Source: a virus
Taxonomy: Duplodnaviria > Heunggongvirae > Uroviricota > Caudoviricetes
Reading direction: 5' to 3' (one strand)
Length of the DNA: 6,554 bases
IMG/VR virus record: IMGVR_UViG_3300029033_000094
Span: 1-6,554 of that record
Both the position numbers and the translations under genes were made by a program. The notes beneath the pieces were generated by a model. It made no database searches, was not told where the DNA came from, and saw only the letters and a list, made by a program, of their open reading frames with translations. Shown here one piece after another: positions 1-6,554 of this stretch (its first letter is position 1; each line of letters opens with the position of its first letter).

Positions 1-2124
1 ACGAAGATGGATGCCTTTGGCTGTACCAGCCGGGGGCAGGCACACCGCGCCGGGCTGTGGCTGATTAAAACGGAGCTGCTGGAAACGCAGACGGTGGACT
101 TCAGCGTGGGTGCCGAAGGGCTTCGCCATGTGCCGGGCGATGTCATTGAAATCTGTGATGATGACTATGCCGGTATCAGCACCGGCGGGCGCGTGCTGGC
201 GGTAAACAGCCAGACCCGGACGCTGACGCTCGACCGTGAAATCACGCTGCCATCCTCCGGTACCACGCTGATAAGCCTGGTTGACGGAAGTGGCAATCCG
301 GTCAGCGTGGAGGTTCAGTCCGTCACCGACGGCGTGAAGGTGAAAGTGAGCCGTGTTCCTGACGGCGTTGCCGAATACAGCGTGTGGGGACTGAAGCTGC
401 CGACGCTGCGCCAGCGCCTGTTCCGCTGCGTGAGTATCCGTGAGAACGACGACGGCACGTATGCCATCACCGCCGTGCAGCATGTACCTGAAAAAGAGGC
501 CATCGTGGATAACGGGGCGCACTTTGACGGCGACCAGAGCGGCACGGTGAATGGTGTCACGCCGCCAGCGGTGCAGCACCTGACCGCCGAAGTCATCGCA
601 GACAGCGGGGAATATCAGGTGCTGGCGCGCTGGGACACGCCGAAGGTGGTGAAGGGCGTGAGCTTCCAGCTCCGTCTGACCGTAACAGCGGATGACGGCA
701 GTGAGCGGCTGGTCAGCACGGCCCGGACGACGGAAACCACATACCGCTTCACGCAGCTGGCGCTGGGGAACTACAGGCTGACAGTCCGGGCGGTAAATGC
801 GTGGGGGCAGCAGGGCGATCCGGCGTCGGTATCGTTCCGGATTGCCGCACCGGCAGCGCCGTCACAGATTGAGCTGACGCCGGGCTATTTTCAGATAACC
901 GCCACGCCGCATCTTGCGGTTTCTGACCCGACGGTACAGTTTGAGTTCTGGTTCTCGGAAAAGCGGATTACCGATATCAGGCAGGTTGAAACCACAGCCC
1001 GCTATCTTGGCACGGCGCTGTACTGGATAGCCGCCAGTATCAATATCAAACCGGGCCATGATTATTACTTTTATATCCGCAGTGTGAACACCGTTGGCAA
1101 ATCGGCATTCGTGGAGGCCGTCGGTCGGGCGAGCGATGATGCGGAAGGTTACCTGGATTTTTTCAAAGGCAAGATAACCGAATCCCATCTCGGCAAGGAG
1201 CTGCTGGAAAAAGTCGAGCTGACGGAGGATAACGCCAGCAGACTGGAGGAGTTTTCGAAAGAGTGGAAGGACGCCAACGATAAGTGGAATGCCATGTGGG
1301 CTGTCAAAATTGAGCAGACCAAAGACGGCAAACATTATGTCGCGGGTATTGGCCTCAGCATGGAGGACACGGAGGAAGGCAAACTGAGTCAGTTTCTGGT
1401 TGCCGCTAACCGTATCGCATTTATTGACCCGGCAAACGGGAATGAAACGCCGATGTTTGTGGCGCAGGGCAATCAGATATTCATGAACGACGTGTTCCTG
1501 AAGCGCCTGACGGCCCCCACCATTACCAGTGGTGGCAGTCCTCCGGTATTTTCCCTGACATCAGACGGAAAGCTGACCGCTAAAAATGCGGATATCAGTG
1601 GCAGTGTGAATGCGAACGCCGGGACGCTCAACAATGTCACGGTAAATGAAAACTGTACGATTAAGGGCATGCTGGAGGCGACTCAGGTCAGAGGTGACTT
1701 CGTTAAAGCTGTATCCAAATCATTCCCGAAACAGGCTGGTACGTGGGGTAATACGGAAACACCAAACGGGACGGTTACAGTCACCATCAGCGATGATCAT
1801 AACTTTGACCGTCAAATCATTATTCCGCCCATTATCTTTAACGGAATAGCGTATAGCGATCCGGGAAGTGGTAATAACCCGGGAGGTACAAGATACACGG
1901 GGTATGGTTTTGAAGTTCGCAAAAACGGTGTATTAATCGCATCCAGAGAAACTAAAGGGGCCATTCCCGGTAGCTACAGTGCGGTTATTGATATGCCTAG
2001 TGGCAGGGGAAGCGTCACTCTGGAGTTTAAGGTTTTCCATAAAGGCAATCAGCGGGCAGGTAATATCACCGACTGTACGGTGATTGTGACCAAAAAAGCC
2101 GCTTCCGGCATCAGTATTCGTTGA
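1..2124 (+). CDS. J: Tail tip host-specificity protein J, C-terminal ~705 codons; 5'-partial, gene continues upstream of the window
   Basis: Frame is open from nt 1 to TGA at 2122-2124; the ATG at nt 7 is an internal Met, not the start. The translation reads as the central and C-terminal part of lambda-type J, including beta-rich FN3-like repeat segments (e.g. ...[27 protein letters not shown]...). Gene order J-lom-stf-tfa matches lambda. Identity is by recognition, not search. Confidence 0.88.
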
Positions 2125-2144
2125 AATTGTTATAACCCATATAA

Positions 2145-2170
2145 GGGCACCAGAAATGGTGCCTTTTTTA
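2145..2170 (+). terminator. Candidate rho-independent terminator between J and lom
   Basis: Stem GGCACCA (2146-2152) pairs with TGGTGCC (2157-2163) around a GAAA tetraloop (2153-2156), followed directly by TTTTTT (2164-2169). It sits 21 nt after the J stop. Orientation fits + strand transcription only. Confidence 0.6.
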
Positions 2171-2182
2171 TTGCAGAAAAGC

Positions 2183-2188
2183 GAGAGG
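2183..2188 (+). promoter_or_regulatory. Shine-Dalgarno-like element for lom
   Basis: GAGAGG lies 5 nt upstream of the lom ATG at 2194. Confidence 0.5.
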
Positions 2189-2193
2189 TAATT

Positions 2194-2793
2194 ATGCGTA
2201 AACTTTATGCCGCCATTTTTTCCGCAGCCATTTGTCTGGCCGTATCCGGTGCGCCTGCATGGGCATCTGAACATCAGTCCACGCTGAGCGCGGGGTATCT
2301 TCATGCCTCGACGAACGTTCCCGGCAGCGATGATCTTAACGGGATTAACGTGAAATACCGTTATGAGTTTACGGATACGCTGGGGCTGGTGACGTCATTC
2401 AGCTATGCAGGAGACAAGAATCGCCAGCTGACCCATTACAGCGATACCCGCTGGCATGAAGATTCCGTTCGTAACCGCTGGTTCAGCGTGATGGTGGGGC
2501 CGTCTGTGCGCGTGAATGAATGGTTCAGCGCGTATGCGATGGCGGGTGTGGCTTACAGCCGTGTGTCGACTTTCTCCGGGGATTATCTCCGCGTAACTGA
2601 CAACAAGGGGAAAACGCACGATGTGCTGACCGGAAGTGATGACGGTCGCCACAGCAACATGTCTCTGGCGTGGGGGGCTGGCGTGCAGTTTAACCCGACC
2701 GAATCCGTGGCCATTGATGTCGCTTATGAAGGCTCCGGCAGTGGCGACTGGCGCACTGACGGTTTCATCGTGGGTGTCGGTTATAAGTTCTGA
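2194..2793 (+). CDS. lom: Lom-like outer membrane protein (Ail/Lom/OmpX/PagC family 8-strand beta-barrel), 199 aa
   Basis: ATG at 2194 with upstream SD. N-terminal signal peptide MRKLYAAIFSAAICLAVSGAPAWA with an AxA cleavage motif. The C-terminal half (...SAYAMAGVAYSR...VDVAYEGSGSGDWRTDGFIVGVGYKF) is near-identical in pattern to lambda Lom and ends in the C-terminal Phe typical of OM beta-barrels. Position between J and stf matches lambda. Confidence 0.85.
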   Translation: MRKLYAAIFSAAICLAVSGAPAWASEHQSTLSAGYLHASTNVPGSDDLNGINVKYRYEFTDTLGLVTSFSYAGDKNRQLTHYSDTRWHEDSVRNRWFSVMVGPSVRVNEWFSAYAMAGVAYSRVSTFSGDYLRVTDNKGKTHDVLTGSDDGRHSNMSLAWGAGVQFNPTESVAIDVAYEGSGSGDWRTDGFIVGVGYKF

Positions 2794-2819
2794 TTAGCCA
2801 GGTAACACAGTGTTATGAC

Positions 2820-2846
2820 AGCCCGCCGGTTCTGGCGGGCTTTTTT
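2820..2846 (+). terminator. Candidate rho-independent terminator downstream of lom
   Basis: GC-rich stem AGCCCGCC (2820-2827) pairs with GGCGGGCT (2834-2841) around loop GGTTCT, running into TTTTTT (2841-2846). It lies 27 nt after the lom stop and 12 nt before the stf ATG. Confidence 0.65.
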
Positions 2847-2848
2847 GT

Positions 2849-2855
2849 GGGGTGA
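2849..2855 (+). promoter_or_regulatory. Shine-Dalgarno-like element for stf
   Basis: GGGGTGA ends 2 nt before the ATG at 2858 (the GG core is about 5 nt upstream). Confidence 0.45.
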
Positions 2856-2857
2856 AT

Positions 2858-5800
2858 ATGGCAGTAAAGATTTCAGGTGTACTGAAAGACGGTGCAGGTA
2901 AACCGGTACAGAACTGTACAATCCAGCTGAAAGCAAAACGTAACAGCACCACGGTGGTGGCGAACACGGTGGCCTCAGAAAATCCGGATGAAGCCGGGCG
3001 TTACAGCATGGACGTTGAGTACGGTCAGTACAGCGTTATTCTGTTGGTGGAAGGATTCCCGCCGTCACATGCCGGGACCATCACCGTGTATGAAGATTCC
3101 CGACCCGGTACGCTGAATGATTTTCTCGGTGCCATGACGGAGGATGATGCCCGTCCGGAGGCTCTGCGCCGTTTTGAACTGATGGTGGAAGAGGTGGCGC
3201 GTAACGCGTCCGCAGTGGCACAGAACACGGCAGCCGCGAAGAAGTCAGCCAGTGATGCCAGCACATCTGCCAGTGAGGCGGCAACTCATACAACCGATGC
3301 TGCAGGCTCAGCTCGTGCCGCCAGCACGTCAGCCGGACAGGCTGCATCATCTGCTCAGTCAGCATCTTCCAGCGCAGGAACGGCATCAACAAAGGCCAGT
3401 GAAGCATCGAAAAGTGCTGCTGCTGCAGAGTCCTCAAAAAGCGCGGCAGCTACCAGTGCCGCTGCGGCGAAAACGTCAGAAACGAATGCGGCAGCGTCAC
3501 AACAATCAGCAGCCACTTCTGCATCCGCCGCGACCACGAAGGCGTCAGAAGCTGCCACCTCAGCCCGGGATGCGGCGGCCTCAAAAGAGGCGGCAAAATC
3601 ATCAGAAACGAGCGCAGCCTCGAGCGCCAGTAGTGCAGCCTCCTCGGCAACAGCGGCAGGAAATTCCGCGAAGGCGGCAAAAACGTCCGAGACGAACGCT
3701 AAGTCTTCTGAGACGGCAGCAGCACAGAGTGCCTCCGCAGCAGCAGACTCAAAAACAGCGGCTGCCTCATCTGCCAGCGCCGCGTCAACAAATGCCGGGC
3801 AGGCCTCAGCCAGTGCCACCGCTGCCGGAAAGTCGGCAGAAAGCGCCGCATCATCCGCTTCAACAGCCACAACGAAGGCTGGCGAAGCCACTGAACAGGC
3901 CACGGCAGCAGCGAGGTCAGCTTCCGCAGCGAAGACATCCGAAACGAACGCGAAAGCGTCGGAAACCAGCGCAGAATCCTCAAAAACGGCTGCCGCATCG
4001 TCAGCCAGTTCGGCGGCGTCATCGGCATCATCTGCGTCTGCTTCAAAAGATGAGGCGACCAGACAGGCGTCAGCAGCGAAGGGCAGCGCCACGACGGCAT
4101 CCACGAAGGCGACAGAGGCAGCTGGCAGTGCGACGGCGGCAGCACAGAGCAAAAGTACAGCAGAATCCGCGGCAACGCGCGCTGAGACAGCAGCAAAACG
4201 GGCAGAGGATATTGCATCCGCCGTGGCGCTTGAGGATGCGAGCACGACGAAAAAGGGGATAGTACAGCTCAGCAGTGCGATCGACAGCACTTCCGAGTCA
4301 CTGGCAGCAACGCCAAAAGCAGTTAAGGCCGCGTATGACCTGGCTAACGGGAAATACACCGCACAGGATGCAACGACAGCACAGAAAGGGATAGTTCAGC
4401 TCAGCAGCGCGACCAACAGCACGTCTGAAACGCTGGCGGCAACGCCAAAGGCAGTAAAAGCAGCCAATGACAATGCTGAGAAACGTCTGCAGAAAGATCA
4501 GAACGGTGCGGATATCCCTGGCAAAGACACCTTTACGAAAAATATTGGTGCCTGCCGCGCCTTCGGTGGGTCAGTAAGCACAACAACAGGAGACTGGACG
4601 ACTGCACAGTTTATCGAGTGGCTGGATTCTCAGGGAGCATTTAACCATCCATACTGGATGTGCAAGGGTTCCTGGTCTTATGGCAATAATAAAATCATTA
4701 CTGATACTGGCTGCGGTAATATTCATCTCGCCGGAGCTGTCATTGAAGTAATGGGGATAAAGTCAGCGATGACGATCCGCATTACCACACCGACCACCTC
4801 CACTGGTGGTGGAACAACTAACGCCCAGTTTACCTATATTAATCACGGAACAGATTATTCACCTGGCTGGCGAAGGGACTATAACTCCAGAAATAAGCCA
4901 ACGGCATCAGAGATCGGGGCGTTACCGTCAGGTGGAACAGCAGTATCATCAGTTAATCTGGCTTCAAAAGGTCGGGTAATCGCGCTGACAGACAATACGC
5001 AGGGGGCAACAGGTCTTGAGTTATACGAGGTGTATAACAACGGATATCCAACAGCGTATGGAAATATCATTCACCTGAAAGGGATGACAGCCGTTGGCGA
5101 AGGTGAGTTACTCATCGGCTGGAGTGGTACAAGCGGTGCTCATGCTCCGGCATTTATTCGTTCACGACGGGATACGACCGATGCAAACTGGTCGCCGTGG
5201 GCGCAGCTTTACACCTCAGCTCATCCTCCTGCAGAGTTTTATCCAGTCGGTGCACCAATCCCGTGGCCATCAGATACCGTTCCGTCTGGCTATGCCCTGA
5301 TGCAGGGGCAGACTTTTGACAAATCTGCTTACCCGAAACTTGCAGCCGCTTATCCGTCAGNNNNNNNNNNNNNNGGCTGGACGATTAAGGGCAAACCTGC
5401 CAGTGGTCGAGCCGTATTATCTCAGGAACAGGACGGCATTAAATCGCACACCCACAGCGCCAGCGCATCCAGTACGGATTTGGGGACGAAAACCACATCG
5501 TCGTTTGATTACGGCACTAAATCCACGAATAACACCGGGGCACATACACACAGTGTGAGCGGCTCTACAAACTCGGCTGGAGCACACACACACTCACTAG
5601 CCAACGTGAACACGGCTAGTGCTAACTCCGGTGCTGGTAGTGCATCAACAAGATTGTCTGTTGTGCATAATCAAAACTATGCAACATCATCTGCTGGCGC
5701 ACATACCCACTCACTGTCCGGCACTGCTGCAAGCGCAGGTGCACACGCACATACTGTCGGTATTGGTGCTCATACGCACTCGGTTGCGATTGGCTCACAT

Positions 5801-5887
5801 GGACACACCATCACCGTTAACGCTGCTGGTAACGCGGAAAACACCGTCAAAAACATCGCATTTAACTACATTGTGAGGCTTGCATAA
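2858..5887 (+). CDS. stf: Side tail fibre protein Stf, 1009 aa; contains a 14-nt N-run at 5361-5374, so continuity is unverified there
   Basis: ATG at 2858 gives N-terminus [26 protein letters not shown]..., which matches the lambda Stf N-terminus as I recall it; an in-frame GTG at 2852 is a less likely alternative start. One frame stays open to TAA at 5885-5887. Contents: Ala/Ser/Thr-rich shaft, two tail-fibre repeats (GIVQLSS...[11 protein letters not shown]), and a His-x-His-rich C-terminal tip ending ...[11 protein letters not shown]. The stop overlaps the tfa start. Confidence 0.85.
3205..4250 (+). repeat. Ala/Ser/Thr-rich low-complexity repeat region encoding the Stf shaft
   Basis: About 350 codons dominated by GCN, TCN, AGC and ACN codons. 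The motif AAKTSETNA recurs three times (about nt 3464, 3674, 3926; spacings 210 and 252 nt), and [10 protein letters not shown]-type stretches recur. Copies differ at synonymous positions, so the repeats are old rather than recent slippage. Confidence 0.8.
4252..4470 (+). repeat. Tandem pair of phage tail-fibre repeats within stf
   Basis: [30 protein letters not shown] (from about 4252) and [30 protein letters not shown] (from about 4384) are in frame, 129 nt (43 codons) apart. The copies are diverged at both nucleotide and amino-acid level. Confidence 0.8.
5361..5374. other. Run of 14 ambiguous bases (N) inside stf: sequencing gap or masked bases
   Basis: Literal n characters in the sequence. 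The stf frame is sensible on both sides (...AAYPS / GWTIKGKP...) and in phase only if the true segment length is 2 mod 3, as 14 is. Confidence 0.95.
5443..5816 (+). other. His-x-His motif-rich C-terminal tip domain of Stf (seven HxH motifs)
   Basis: Seven motifs in order: SHTHS, AHTHS, AHTHS, AHTHS, AHAHT, AHTHS, SHGHT, separated by Gly/Ser/Thr/Ala-rich linkers. This is the pattern of the T4 gp37-type fibre tip. Confidence 0.7.
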
Positions 5888-6471
5888 TGGCATTCAGAAT
5901 GAGTGAACAACCACGGACCATAAAAATTTATAATCTGCTGGCCGGAACTAATGAATTTATTGGTGAAGGTGATGCATATATTCCGCCTCATACAGGTCTG
6001 CCAGCAAACAGTACCGATATTGCACCGCCAGATATTCCGGCAGGCTTCGTGGCTGTTTTCAACAGTGATGAGGCATCGTGGCATCTCGTTGAAGACCATC
6101 GGGGTAAAACGGTTTATGACGTAGCGTCAGGGGACGCGTTATTTATTTCTGAACTCGGTCCGTTACCGGAAAATGTTACCTGGTTATCGCCGGAAGGGGA
6201 GTTTCAGAAGTGGAACGGCACAGCCTGGGTGAAAGATGCAGAAGCAGAAAAACTGTTCCGGATCCGAGAGGCGGAAGAAACAAAAAACAGCCTGATGCAG
6301 GTAGCCAGTGAGCATATTGCGCCACTTCAGGATGCTGTGGATCTGGAAATCGCAACGGAGGAAGAAACCTCATTGCTGGAAGCCTGGAAAAAGTATCGGG
6401 TGTTGCTGAACCGTGTTGATACATCAACTGCACCTGATATTGAGTGGCCTACGAACCCTGTCAGGGAGTAA
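5887..6471 (+). CDS. tfa: Tail fibre assembly protein Tfa, 194 aa
   Basis: ATG at 5887-5889 overlaps the stf TAA (5885-5887) as TAATG. The product [51 protein letters not shown]... is the same length as lambda Tfa (orf-194) and, from memory, near-identical to it. Stop TAA at 6469-6471. Confidence 0.9.
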
Positions 6472-6482
6472 TCATTGGGATT

Positions 6483-6554
6483 ATGCCGCAGCACGTCTTA
6501 AGCAAGAACGTGCTGCGGTTGGATGCTATTTTTTCCCTGAAGCGGAAAACATTA
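6483..6554 (+). CDS. Possible start of a downstream ORF running off the window (MPQHVLSKNVLRLDAIFSLKRKTL...); speculative
   Basis: ATG at 6483 opens a frame with no stop before the window end (24 codons). The only SD-like sequence (GGGA, 6477-6480) is just 2 nt from the ATG, and the frame overlaps the inverted repeat. No recognisable product. Confidence 0.15.
   Translation, partial: MPQHVLSKNVLRLDAIFSLKRKTL
6486..6518. repeat. Perfect 10-bp inverted repeat (hairpin or protein-binding palindrome) just downstream of tfa
   Basis: CCGCAGCACG (6486-6495) and CGTGCTGCGG (6509-6518) are exact reverse complements around a 13-nt loop TCTTAAGCAAGAA, which itself contains the palindrome CTTAAG. A T6 run follows at 6529-6534, 10 nt past the stem. 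Confidence 0.6.

Follow-up and report, generated by a model that had tools for sequence, protein, structure and literature searches.

The run of 14 N within the side tail fibre gene stf is very probably a record-level placeholder of the wrong length that lies over an intact, known gene, and it would correspond to no biological feature. The window, that is, the whole 6,554-nt stretch of viral DNA analysed here, contains this single N-run, at positions 5361–5374. Its flanks are separated by 20 nt rather than 14 nt in every relative sampled, and on this comparative evidence stf would almost certainly be intact at the gap site. A separate lead emerged from the same segment, namely a recurrent breakpoint at which the tail fibre tip and tfa are joined to other sequences in decayed prophages.

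Genes of the window and position of the gap

The window shows the gene order J-lom-stf-tfa, matching that of lambda. The genes, domains and gap segments are as follows:

1–2124, + strand: 3' part of the tail tip gene J (Pfam Ig_J, Ig_J_second, Phage_Tail_Tip and Ig_GpJ_C)
2194–2793, + strand: lom, encoding an Ail/Lom outer-membrane protein (Pfam Ail_Lom, E=7.5e-120)
2858–5887, + strand: stf, the side tail fibre gene; 1009 codons plus stop as written, 1011 codons with a 20-nt fill
5249–5386, + strand: coding region of the Phage Tail Collar domain; residues 798–845 of the filled protein, with the C-terminal PDMRG motif removed by the N-run
5339–5360, + strand: left flank of the gap, shared without change by the nearest relatives and at least 120 viral contigs
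5361–5374, no strand: run of 14 N, in place of the 20-nt GCGTGATCCCTGATATGCGT of the nearest relatives (rest of G835 plus V836-I837-P838-D839-M840-R841)
5375–5397, + strand: right flank of the gap, shared without change by the nearest relatives and at least 120 viral contigs
5447–5806, + strand: HxH-repeat needle/tip region with 7 HxH triplets, homologous to the receptor-binding tip of T4 gp37
5887–6471, + strand: tfa, the tail fibre assembly chaperone gene, whose start overlaps the stf stop (Pfam Caudo_TAP, E=3e-45)

The open reading frame containing stf spans 2852–5887 on the + strand (3,036 nt) and is open through the Ns, and the stf start at ATG 2858 agrees with the annotated start in relatives. 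Pfam searches of the stf product detected PF08400 phage_tail_N, the N-terminal prophage tail fibre domain (E=2.4e-71, residues 1–134), as well as PF03406 Phage_fiber_2, PF07484 Collar and PF03335 Phage_fiber. The Collar match (E=7e-12, residues 798–845) was obtained on filled Stf, the PD(L/M)RG motif being hidden by the Ns in the window itself. Over its C-terminal 218 residues, Stf aligned with PDB 2XGF, the T4 gp37 tip (E=7.6e-89), and the first of the seven HxH triplets in this tip is HTH, at residues 866–868 of the filled protein (window 5447–5455). The window tfa product is identical to WP_001824636.1. Given the Pfam domains, the gp37-like tip, the overlapping tfa and the J-lom-stf-tfa order, the gene had been correctly identified in the sequence-only reading as a lambda-type stf with an HxH tip.

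The letters around the N-run are gct tat ccg tca g, followed by 14 N and ggc tgg acg att aag, and the g at 5360 is base 1 of the first hidden codon. That reading had also placed a 14-nt N-run at 5361–5374 inside stf, just upstream of the HxH tip and with the frame kept across the Ns as written. Each of these statements holds for the window sequence: the first HxH triplet lies 25 codons downstream, and the reading frame continues through the gap.

Relatives carry 20 nt at the gap site

The closest relatives were L002 (NZ_CM144239.1) and L003 (NZ_AP045758.1), both prophages of complete E. coli genomes. Compared with window positions 3992–6554, they show two SNPs (4306 and 5182) plus the gap, and the 1,180 nt to the right of the gap (5375–6554) are 100% identical to L002, L003 and a further sequence, L147. 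The flanks that the solid N-run separates in the window are contiguous in L002 and L003, where 20 nt, GCGTGATCCCTGATATGCGT, stand between window-identical sequences on either side. The same 20-mer was found in all six relatives fetched (L001–L006), and it reads AAAYPS-GVIPDMR-GWTIKG.

We scanned IMG/VR with the 22-nt left flank and the 23-nt right flank, permitting 8–32 nt between them, and at least 120 contigs matched both. All 120 contigs listed carry a 20-nt insert, identical to GCGTGATCCCTGATATGCGT in 107 of them; the four insert variants in this list encode GVIPDMR or AVIPDMR, none with a stop or a shift. The match set from complete E. coli genomes comprised 3,563 records, 3,430 of them full-length, and in 57 of 57 full-length rows from an evenly spread listing the span measured 182 nt against the 176 nt of the query (+6). 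Every phage match listed across the gap site was likewise 6 nt longer than the window. No stop, shift or length change was found at the hidden site in the relatives sampled.

The N count of 14 is thus 6 short of the true distance of 20 in all relatives, and since this shortfall is divisible by 3, the frame as written survives by luck. Two sources of the kept frame had been suggested from the sequence alone. A masked in-frame segment does not agree with the relatives, all of which have 20 nt and not 14, whereas a placeholder of arbitrary length, keeping the frame with a chance of one in three, proved to be the right reading, the shortfall happening to be 6.

If the Ns were a base-for-base mask, the source would truly hold 14 nt at this site, with an in-frame 6-bp deletion removing two GVIPDMR residues of the collar. 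The kept frame and the fact that N masks normally preserve length agree with such a mask, but we regard it as extremely unlikely. Exactly 14 nt between the same flanks gave 0 matches in IMG/VR, in 185,579 species-representative genomes and in JGI metagenomes, with a pattern that does match literal Ns, as checked on the window only. Among the matches listed, the 20-nt length was invariant (120/120 and 57/57). Furthermore, the hidden residues G835–R841 make up the PD(M/L)RG motif at the C-terminus of the Pfam Collar domain, and conservation of this motif extends to T4 gp37 and lambda.

Probable origin of the gap

We infer that the gap arose during assembly. The placeholder would be a gap of estimated size left by assembly or scaffolding, or the product of another masking step, rather than a base-for-base mask. 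The DNA hidden in the source is, with high probability, the same 20 nt as in the relatives; it would be GCGTGATCCCTGATATGCGT or a synonymous variant, completing the codons G835-V-I-P-D-M-R841. The filled order would then be TATCCGTCAG-GCGTGATCCCTGATATGCGT-GGCTGGACG with the frame open, and stf would be an uninterrupted 1011-codon gene followed by the chaperone gene tfa. When the 20-mer was inserted into the window, the filled Stf was 1011 aa long with a single terminal stop, and the annotated homologues WP_089620328.1 and WP_095586120.1 are also 1011 aa. On either side of the gap, and also through the Ns as written, the frame is open, as it is at this site in all relatives.

This part of stf tends to occur more than once in a genome, the median being 2 places and the maximum 6. 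Since it is multi-copy in most E. coli genomes, an assembly break at this point is plausible. The commonest exact block common to the window allele and other stf alleles measures 31+20+35 nt and is centred on the gap. Short-read contigs typically end at such shared blocks, after which a scaffolder would bridge the break with as many Ns as it estimates to be missing. Under a simple de Bruijn model of repeats, the overhangs should be equal; those of the commonest block, 31 and 35 nt, are roughly but not exactly symmetric, so that the fit of the gap ends to the k-mer model is approximate and suggestive.

The stf gene of the window is itself a mosaic, with one crossover interval:

3992–4471, + strand: crossover interval of the stf mosaic; the left side is of the 987-aa Stf type (L010–L016), the right side of the L002/L003 type

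Window positions 1–4471 show 99.2–99.6% identity to L010–L016, prophages whose Stf is 987 aa long and which carry a pin-type invertase downstream, and positions 3992–6554 follow L002 and L003. The exact mosaic of the window is absent from complete E. coli genomes, in which the best whole-window match reached 96.4%, and phage records gave no whole-window match above 96.4%. That no complete genome holds the same mosaic fits a draft assembly as the source. The crossover lies far from the gap and represents ordinary tail fibre mosaicism.

State of stf at the gap site

The gap might instead hide a disruption. This could be a frameshift or stop, an insertion, or a scaffold mis-join of an intact stf on the left to a truncated stf remnant of another prophage on the right, and stf would then be a pseudogene or the window chimeric. 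Gaps often fall where assemblers met conflicting reads, truncated stf remnants starting inside the hidden 20 nt do exist (the one in L147 is 100% identical to 5375–6554), and lambda PaPa lost stf without harm in the laboratory (PMC12617516). Against this, L002 and L003, both in complete genomes, are collinear with the window on both sides, with 2 SNPs over 2.5 kb; no lesion was seen here in any relative sampled; and each remnant type checked is rare, occurring in 0–5 of 5,426 complete genomes. We therefore consider a hidden disruption very unlikely. The statement in the sequence-only reading that the window alone cannot tell an intact gene from a pseudogene is strictly true, but the comparative data strongly favour an intact gene.

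That reading had drawn its doubt from laboratory lambda, whose stf it described as split into two frames by a frameshift. The description is accurate: the stf frameshift of lambda PaPa and the loss of stf in laboratory lambda are documented (PMC12617516), NC_001416 carries orf-401 and orf-314, and the HK630 annotation remarks of lambda stf 'missing C relative to Ur-lambda'. In lambda, the overlap between the two frames spans 20819–20855, and the equivalent of the hidden segment lies at 21356–21376, which places the frameshift ~500 nt upstream of the site equivalent to the N-run. The window stf frame is unbroken through the region equivalent to the lambda lesion. A pseudogene of the lambda PaPa type, with a 1-bp deletion in the shaft, was rejected for the window on these two grounds. 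The lambda lesion thus has no bearing on the N-run, and the analogy gives no ground to suspect this site.

For annotation, these results mean that stf is better called an intact 1011-aa side tail fibre gene than a suspected pseudogene. The five X residues in the translation may be taken as belonging to GVIPDMR, and the number of Ns is no reliable measure of length. The gap itself would bring no new biology.

A recurrent breakpoint inside the hidden segment

Independently of the gap, we observed that a deletion breakpoint, …CCTGA|TATGCGT…, recurs within the hidden segment, where at least 12 upstream sequences are fused to the Stf tip plus tfa in decayed prophages. The events cluster at one phosphodiester, and the breakpoint coincides with the D839|M840 codon boundary, at the junction of collar and needle.

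Ten contigs encoding the identical Tfa were fetched, and in two of them, L143 and L147, similarity to the window begins exactly at 5375. Both carry a truncated stf in which homology starts within the 20-mer, at …(GA)TATGCGT|GGCTGG. At the breakpoint, L147 has nu1 codon 15 as its left partner and L143 has gpA at about codon 560; a third partner, downstream of bor/iss, stands in the E. coli genome L150. Pattern scans were run for sequences keeping ATGCGTGGCTGG but differing in the 4 nt upstream, and the partners recovered were gpA at about codon 100, an inverted gpA fragment, a ParB-like ORF, a short ORF (MAGTQH) and gpZ codon 29. A protein search with the tip fragment gave an HTH/GntR-like protein, a phage lysozyme, a late Nu1-like part and one unassigned ORF as partners. 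The 7-nt suffix TATGCGT is shared exactly with native stf in seven partner types, while the shared stretch is 8 nt in one and 9–12 nt in four. Where the native sequence of a partner was recognisable (lambda nu1, A and Z), TA stands at the crossover, which gives 2–3 nt of microhomology. All ten recognisable coding partners are fused in frame (10/10); six of these in-frame partners came from the DNA search, which has no detection bias towards in-frame fusions.

The survey covered a 4-nt search window in the DNA scans and proteins of up to 301 aa in the protein search. At the test site, four foreign junction types were found in five IMG/VR contigs. Control scans of equal design in IMG/VR gave no foreign junction at offset +6, none at +12 and none among 14 matches at −12, and one foreign junction type at −24. 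Among proteins of up to 301 aa, foreign tip fusions cluster at Stf residues 837–840, and the site is not exclusive: other foreign tip fusions start at residues 803, 811, 822, 823, 828, 830, 832, 834, 842, 844, 845, 856 and 861. The remnants in K-12 Qin, L005 and L149 break elsewhere.

Several simple accounts of the breakpoint were rejected. Three junction types were checked and each was found in 0–5 of 5,426 complete genomes; this rarity indicates separate events and, together with the at least 12 left partners, argues against one common inherited remnant. The K-12 prophages DLP12 and Qin do not represent the same junction, since DLP12 joins A' to tfa' and stfQ' of Qin breaks further upstream. 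An older idea, restated in PMC3945230, holds that stf exchange is driven by associated invertases. A site for a Din-family invertase (pix/gix/cix) was sought as a ~26-bp imperfect palindrome of the AAACCNNGGTTT type with an inverted partner beside an invertase gene; the e14 pix, for example, reads CCTTCTCCCAAACCAAGGTTT. The breakpoint showed no pix-like sequence, and no inverted partner was found between tfa and pin. A DNA hairpin at the breakpoint was rejected as well (z=−0.14). No description of this breakpoint was found in the searchable literature.

The breakpoint could be caused by a preferred breakage site, by selection for translated cassettes of tip plus Tfa starting from the collar/needle boundary, or by both. 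Its coincidence with the N-run may be due to chance, and only a source genome that also has a remnant of this kind would make it relevant to the gap. One can imagine that the gap covers a preferred site of breakage and rejoining, used independently at least a dozen times, and that assembly failed where intact and rearranged copies coexist; we consider this improbable. If true, it would suggest that a site-preferential mechanism or strong selection makes 'orphan' cassettes of tail fibre tip and chaperone in decaying prophages. Were a mechanism at work, and not chance plus selection, it would have consequences for the way lambdoid prophages keep and exchange host-range cassettes.

A related reading takes the Ns as real structural heterogeneity, such that in the sequenced genome or population intact stf coexists with a copy that was rearranged at the breakpoint, and no consensus could be called. 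The recurrence of the breakpoint with at least 12 different left partners is in its favour, as are the scattered Ns beside the e14 pix crossover in a K-12 record, which illustrate that Ns can mark recombination heterogeneity. Heterogeneity of this kind, however, would give scattered Ns at the true length and not a solid run 6 nt too short, and ATGCGT, on the right-hand side of the breakpoint, should have been called without ambiguity but is hidden as well; the odds of this reading are slim indeed. A wrong-length placeholder over intact stf thus stays the preferred explanation of the gap, and the breakpoint cluster is an unexplained lead, the only one of wider interest here.

Comparison with known systems

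The nearest known counterparts of the window are the prophages of E. coli strains KK05-19 (NZ_CM144239.1; WP_089620328.1) and 23CRST001 (NZ_AP045758.1; WP_095586120.1), which have the same J-lom-stf-tfa order and the same tfa. L002 shows 96.9% identity overall to the window, and the N-terminal two fifths of the window's stf, as well as lom and J, belong to another allele group.

Lambda Stf resembles the window Stf in gene position, in its C-terminus of collar and HxH tip and in its tfa partner, and its shaft is shorter than that of the window Stf. Its segment equivalent to the hidden codons is GVLPDMR, likewise 7 codons. The Stf of Ur-lambda is 774 aa long.

T4 gp37 (residues 785–1026, PDB 2XGF) shares the HxH repeats and an 11-residue C-terminal stretch with the window Stf, and its YPSGVIPDMRG stretch is identical to that of the filled protein. 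In contrast to the window Stf, gp37 belongs to the long tail fibre of a myovirus, and the central tip segments of the two proteins diverge. The gap itself resembles the scaffold gaps of estimated size in draft assemblies, which, as in the window, appear as a solid N-run of wrong length between collinear flanks at repeats within the genome.

Mosaic structure of stf and its surroundings

The stf gene of the window is a mosaic, with the change falling in the interval 3992-4471. Prophages L010-L016, which encode a 987-aa Stf and a pin-type invertase downstream, match window 1-4471 at 99.2-99.6% identity, and the closest E. coli prophages (L002 and L003), at the ompT/envY (DLP12) locus, are near-identical to window 3992-6554. 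This combination was absent from every complete E. coli genome searched, with the best whole-window match at 96.4%. In relatives, the 3' part of tfa is duplicated, a truncated second copy with 88-89% identity lying ~1 kb downstream under the annotation of a tail fibre assembly protein that is incomplete. This point is beyond the end of the window.

The tfa 3' part and its second copy
Window 6306-6426
L002:8662-8782
L001:6353-6473 (another relative)

The Ala/Ser/Thr-rich shaft of stf also holds two other-frame ORFs, which are most likely by-products of composition bias.

Other-frame ORFs in the stf shaft
Window 3252-4262, plus strand, ~335 aa
Window 3355-4359, minus strand, ~335 aa

A recurrent breakpoint in stf

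We identified a recurring deletion or rearrangement breakpoint of stf between …CCTGA and TATGCGTGGCTGG…, at the D839/M840 codon boundary and within the segment hidden at window 5361-5374. At this position the Stf tip and tfa are fused to at least 12 different left partners, with the frame kept in 10/10 coding partners.

Left partners of the stf breakpoint and loci tied to it
nu1
gpA, at three positions, one of them an inverted fragment
gpZ
Lysozyme
ParB-like ORF
HTH protein
Late part, Nu1-like
Sequence 3' of bor
Two more, without assignment
L143:7495, L147:7483 and L150:1495 (loci with truncated stf)
Further loci: L152, L153, L155, L156, L157, L161, L163 and L182-L185

Exactly the 7-nt suffix TATGCGT was common to 7 of the at least 12 partner types. 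Equally designed control scans of IMG/VR at +6, +12 and -12 from the breakpoint contained no foreign junctions, and the scan at -24 contained one type. The breakpoint is a warm spot, other sites being used too. No mechanism was found when a pix-like invertase site, an inverted partner and a hairpin were checked.

A short stf variant (L165:3059; protein P0063) carries an in-frame internal deletion that fuses ...KDQNGADIP to D-MRGW..., passes through an ATACCCG/ATCCCTG microhomology and removes the entire distal shaft together with the greater part of the collar domain. The K-12 cryptic prophages differ in the remnants kept: in DLP12 (L158:3811-4554) a terminase-A fragment is fused straight to a tfa fragment without the stf tip, whereas in Qin (L159:1143-1844) an stf remnant of 233 aa survives, with a normal reading through the site hidden in the window.

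Assembly breaks and Ns in related records

A 2984-bp contig of a different assembly (L017; GCA_050071795.1, DBIHMD010000244.1) equals window 668-3651 at 100% identity. Because this contig ends within the Ala/Ser-rich shaft repeats, it shows that short-read assemblies break easily within stf. Single, scattered Ns were present in the e14 prophage of E. coli K-12 BZKR3G40 (L160:5076-5095, NZ_CP064681.1; ccaaaccaaNgtttNNgaNaNNNNaNNNataac), the first in the core of pix, the invertase crossover site of e14; they resemble what a consensus over both orientations of the invertible P segment would give. In contrast to these scattered single Ns, the window carries a solid N-run of the wrong length.
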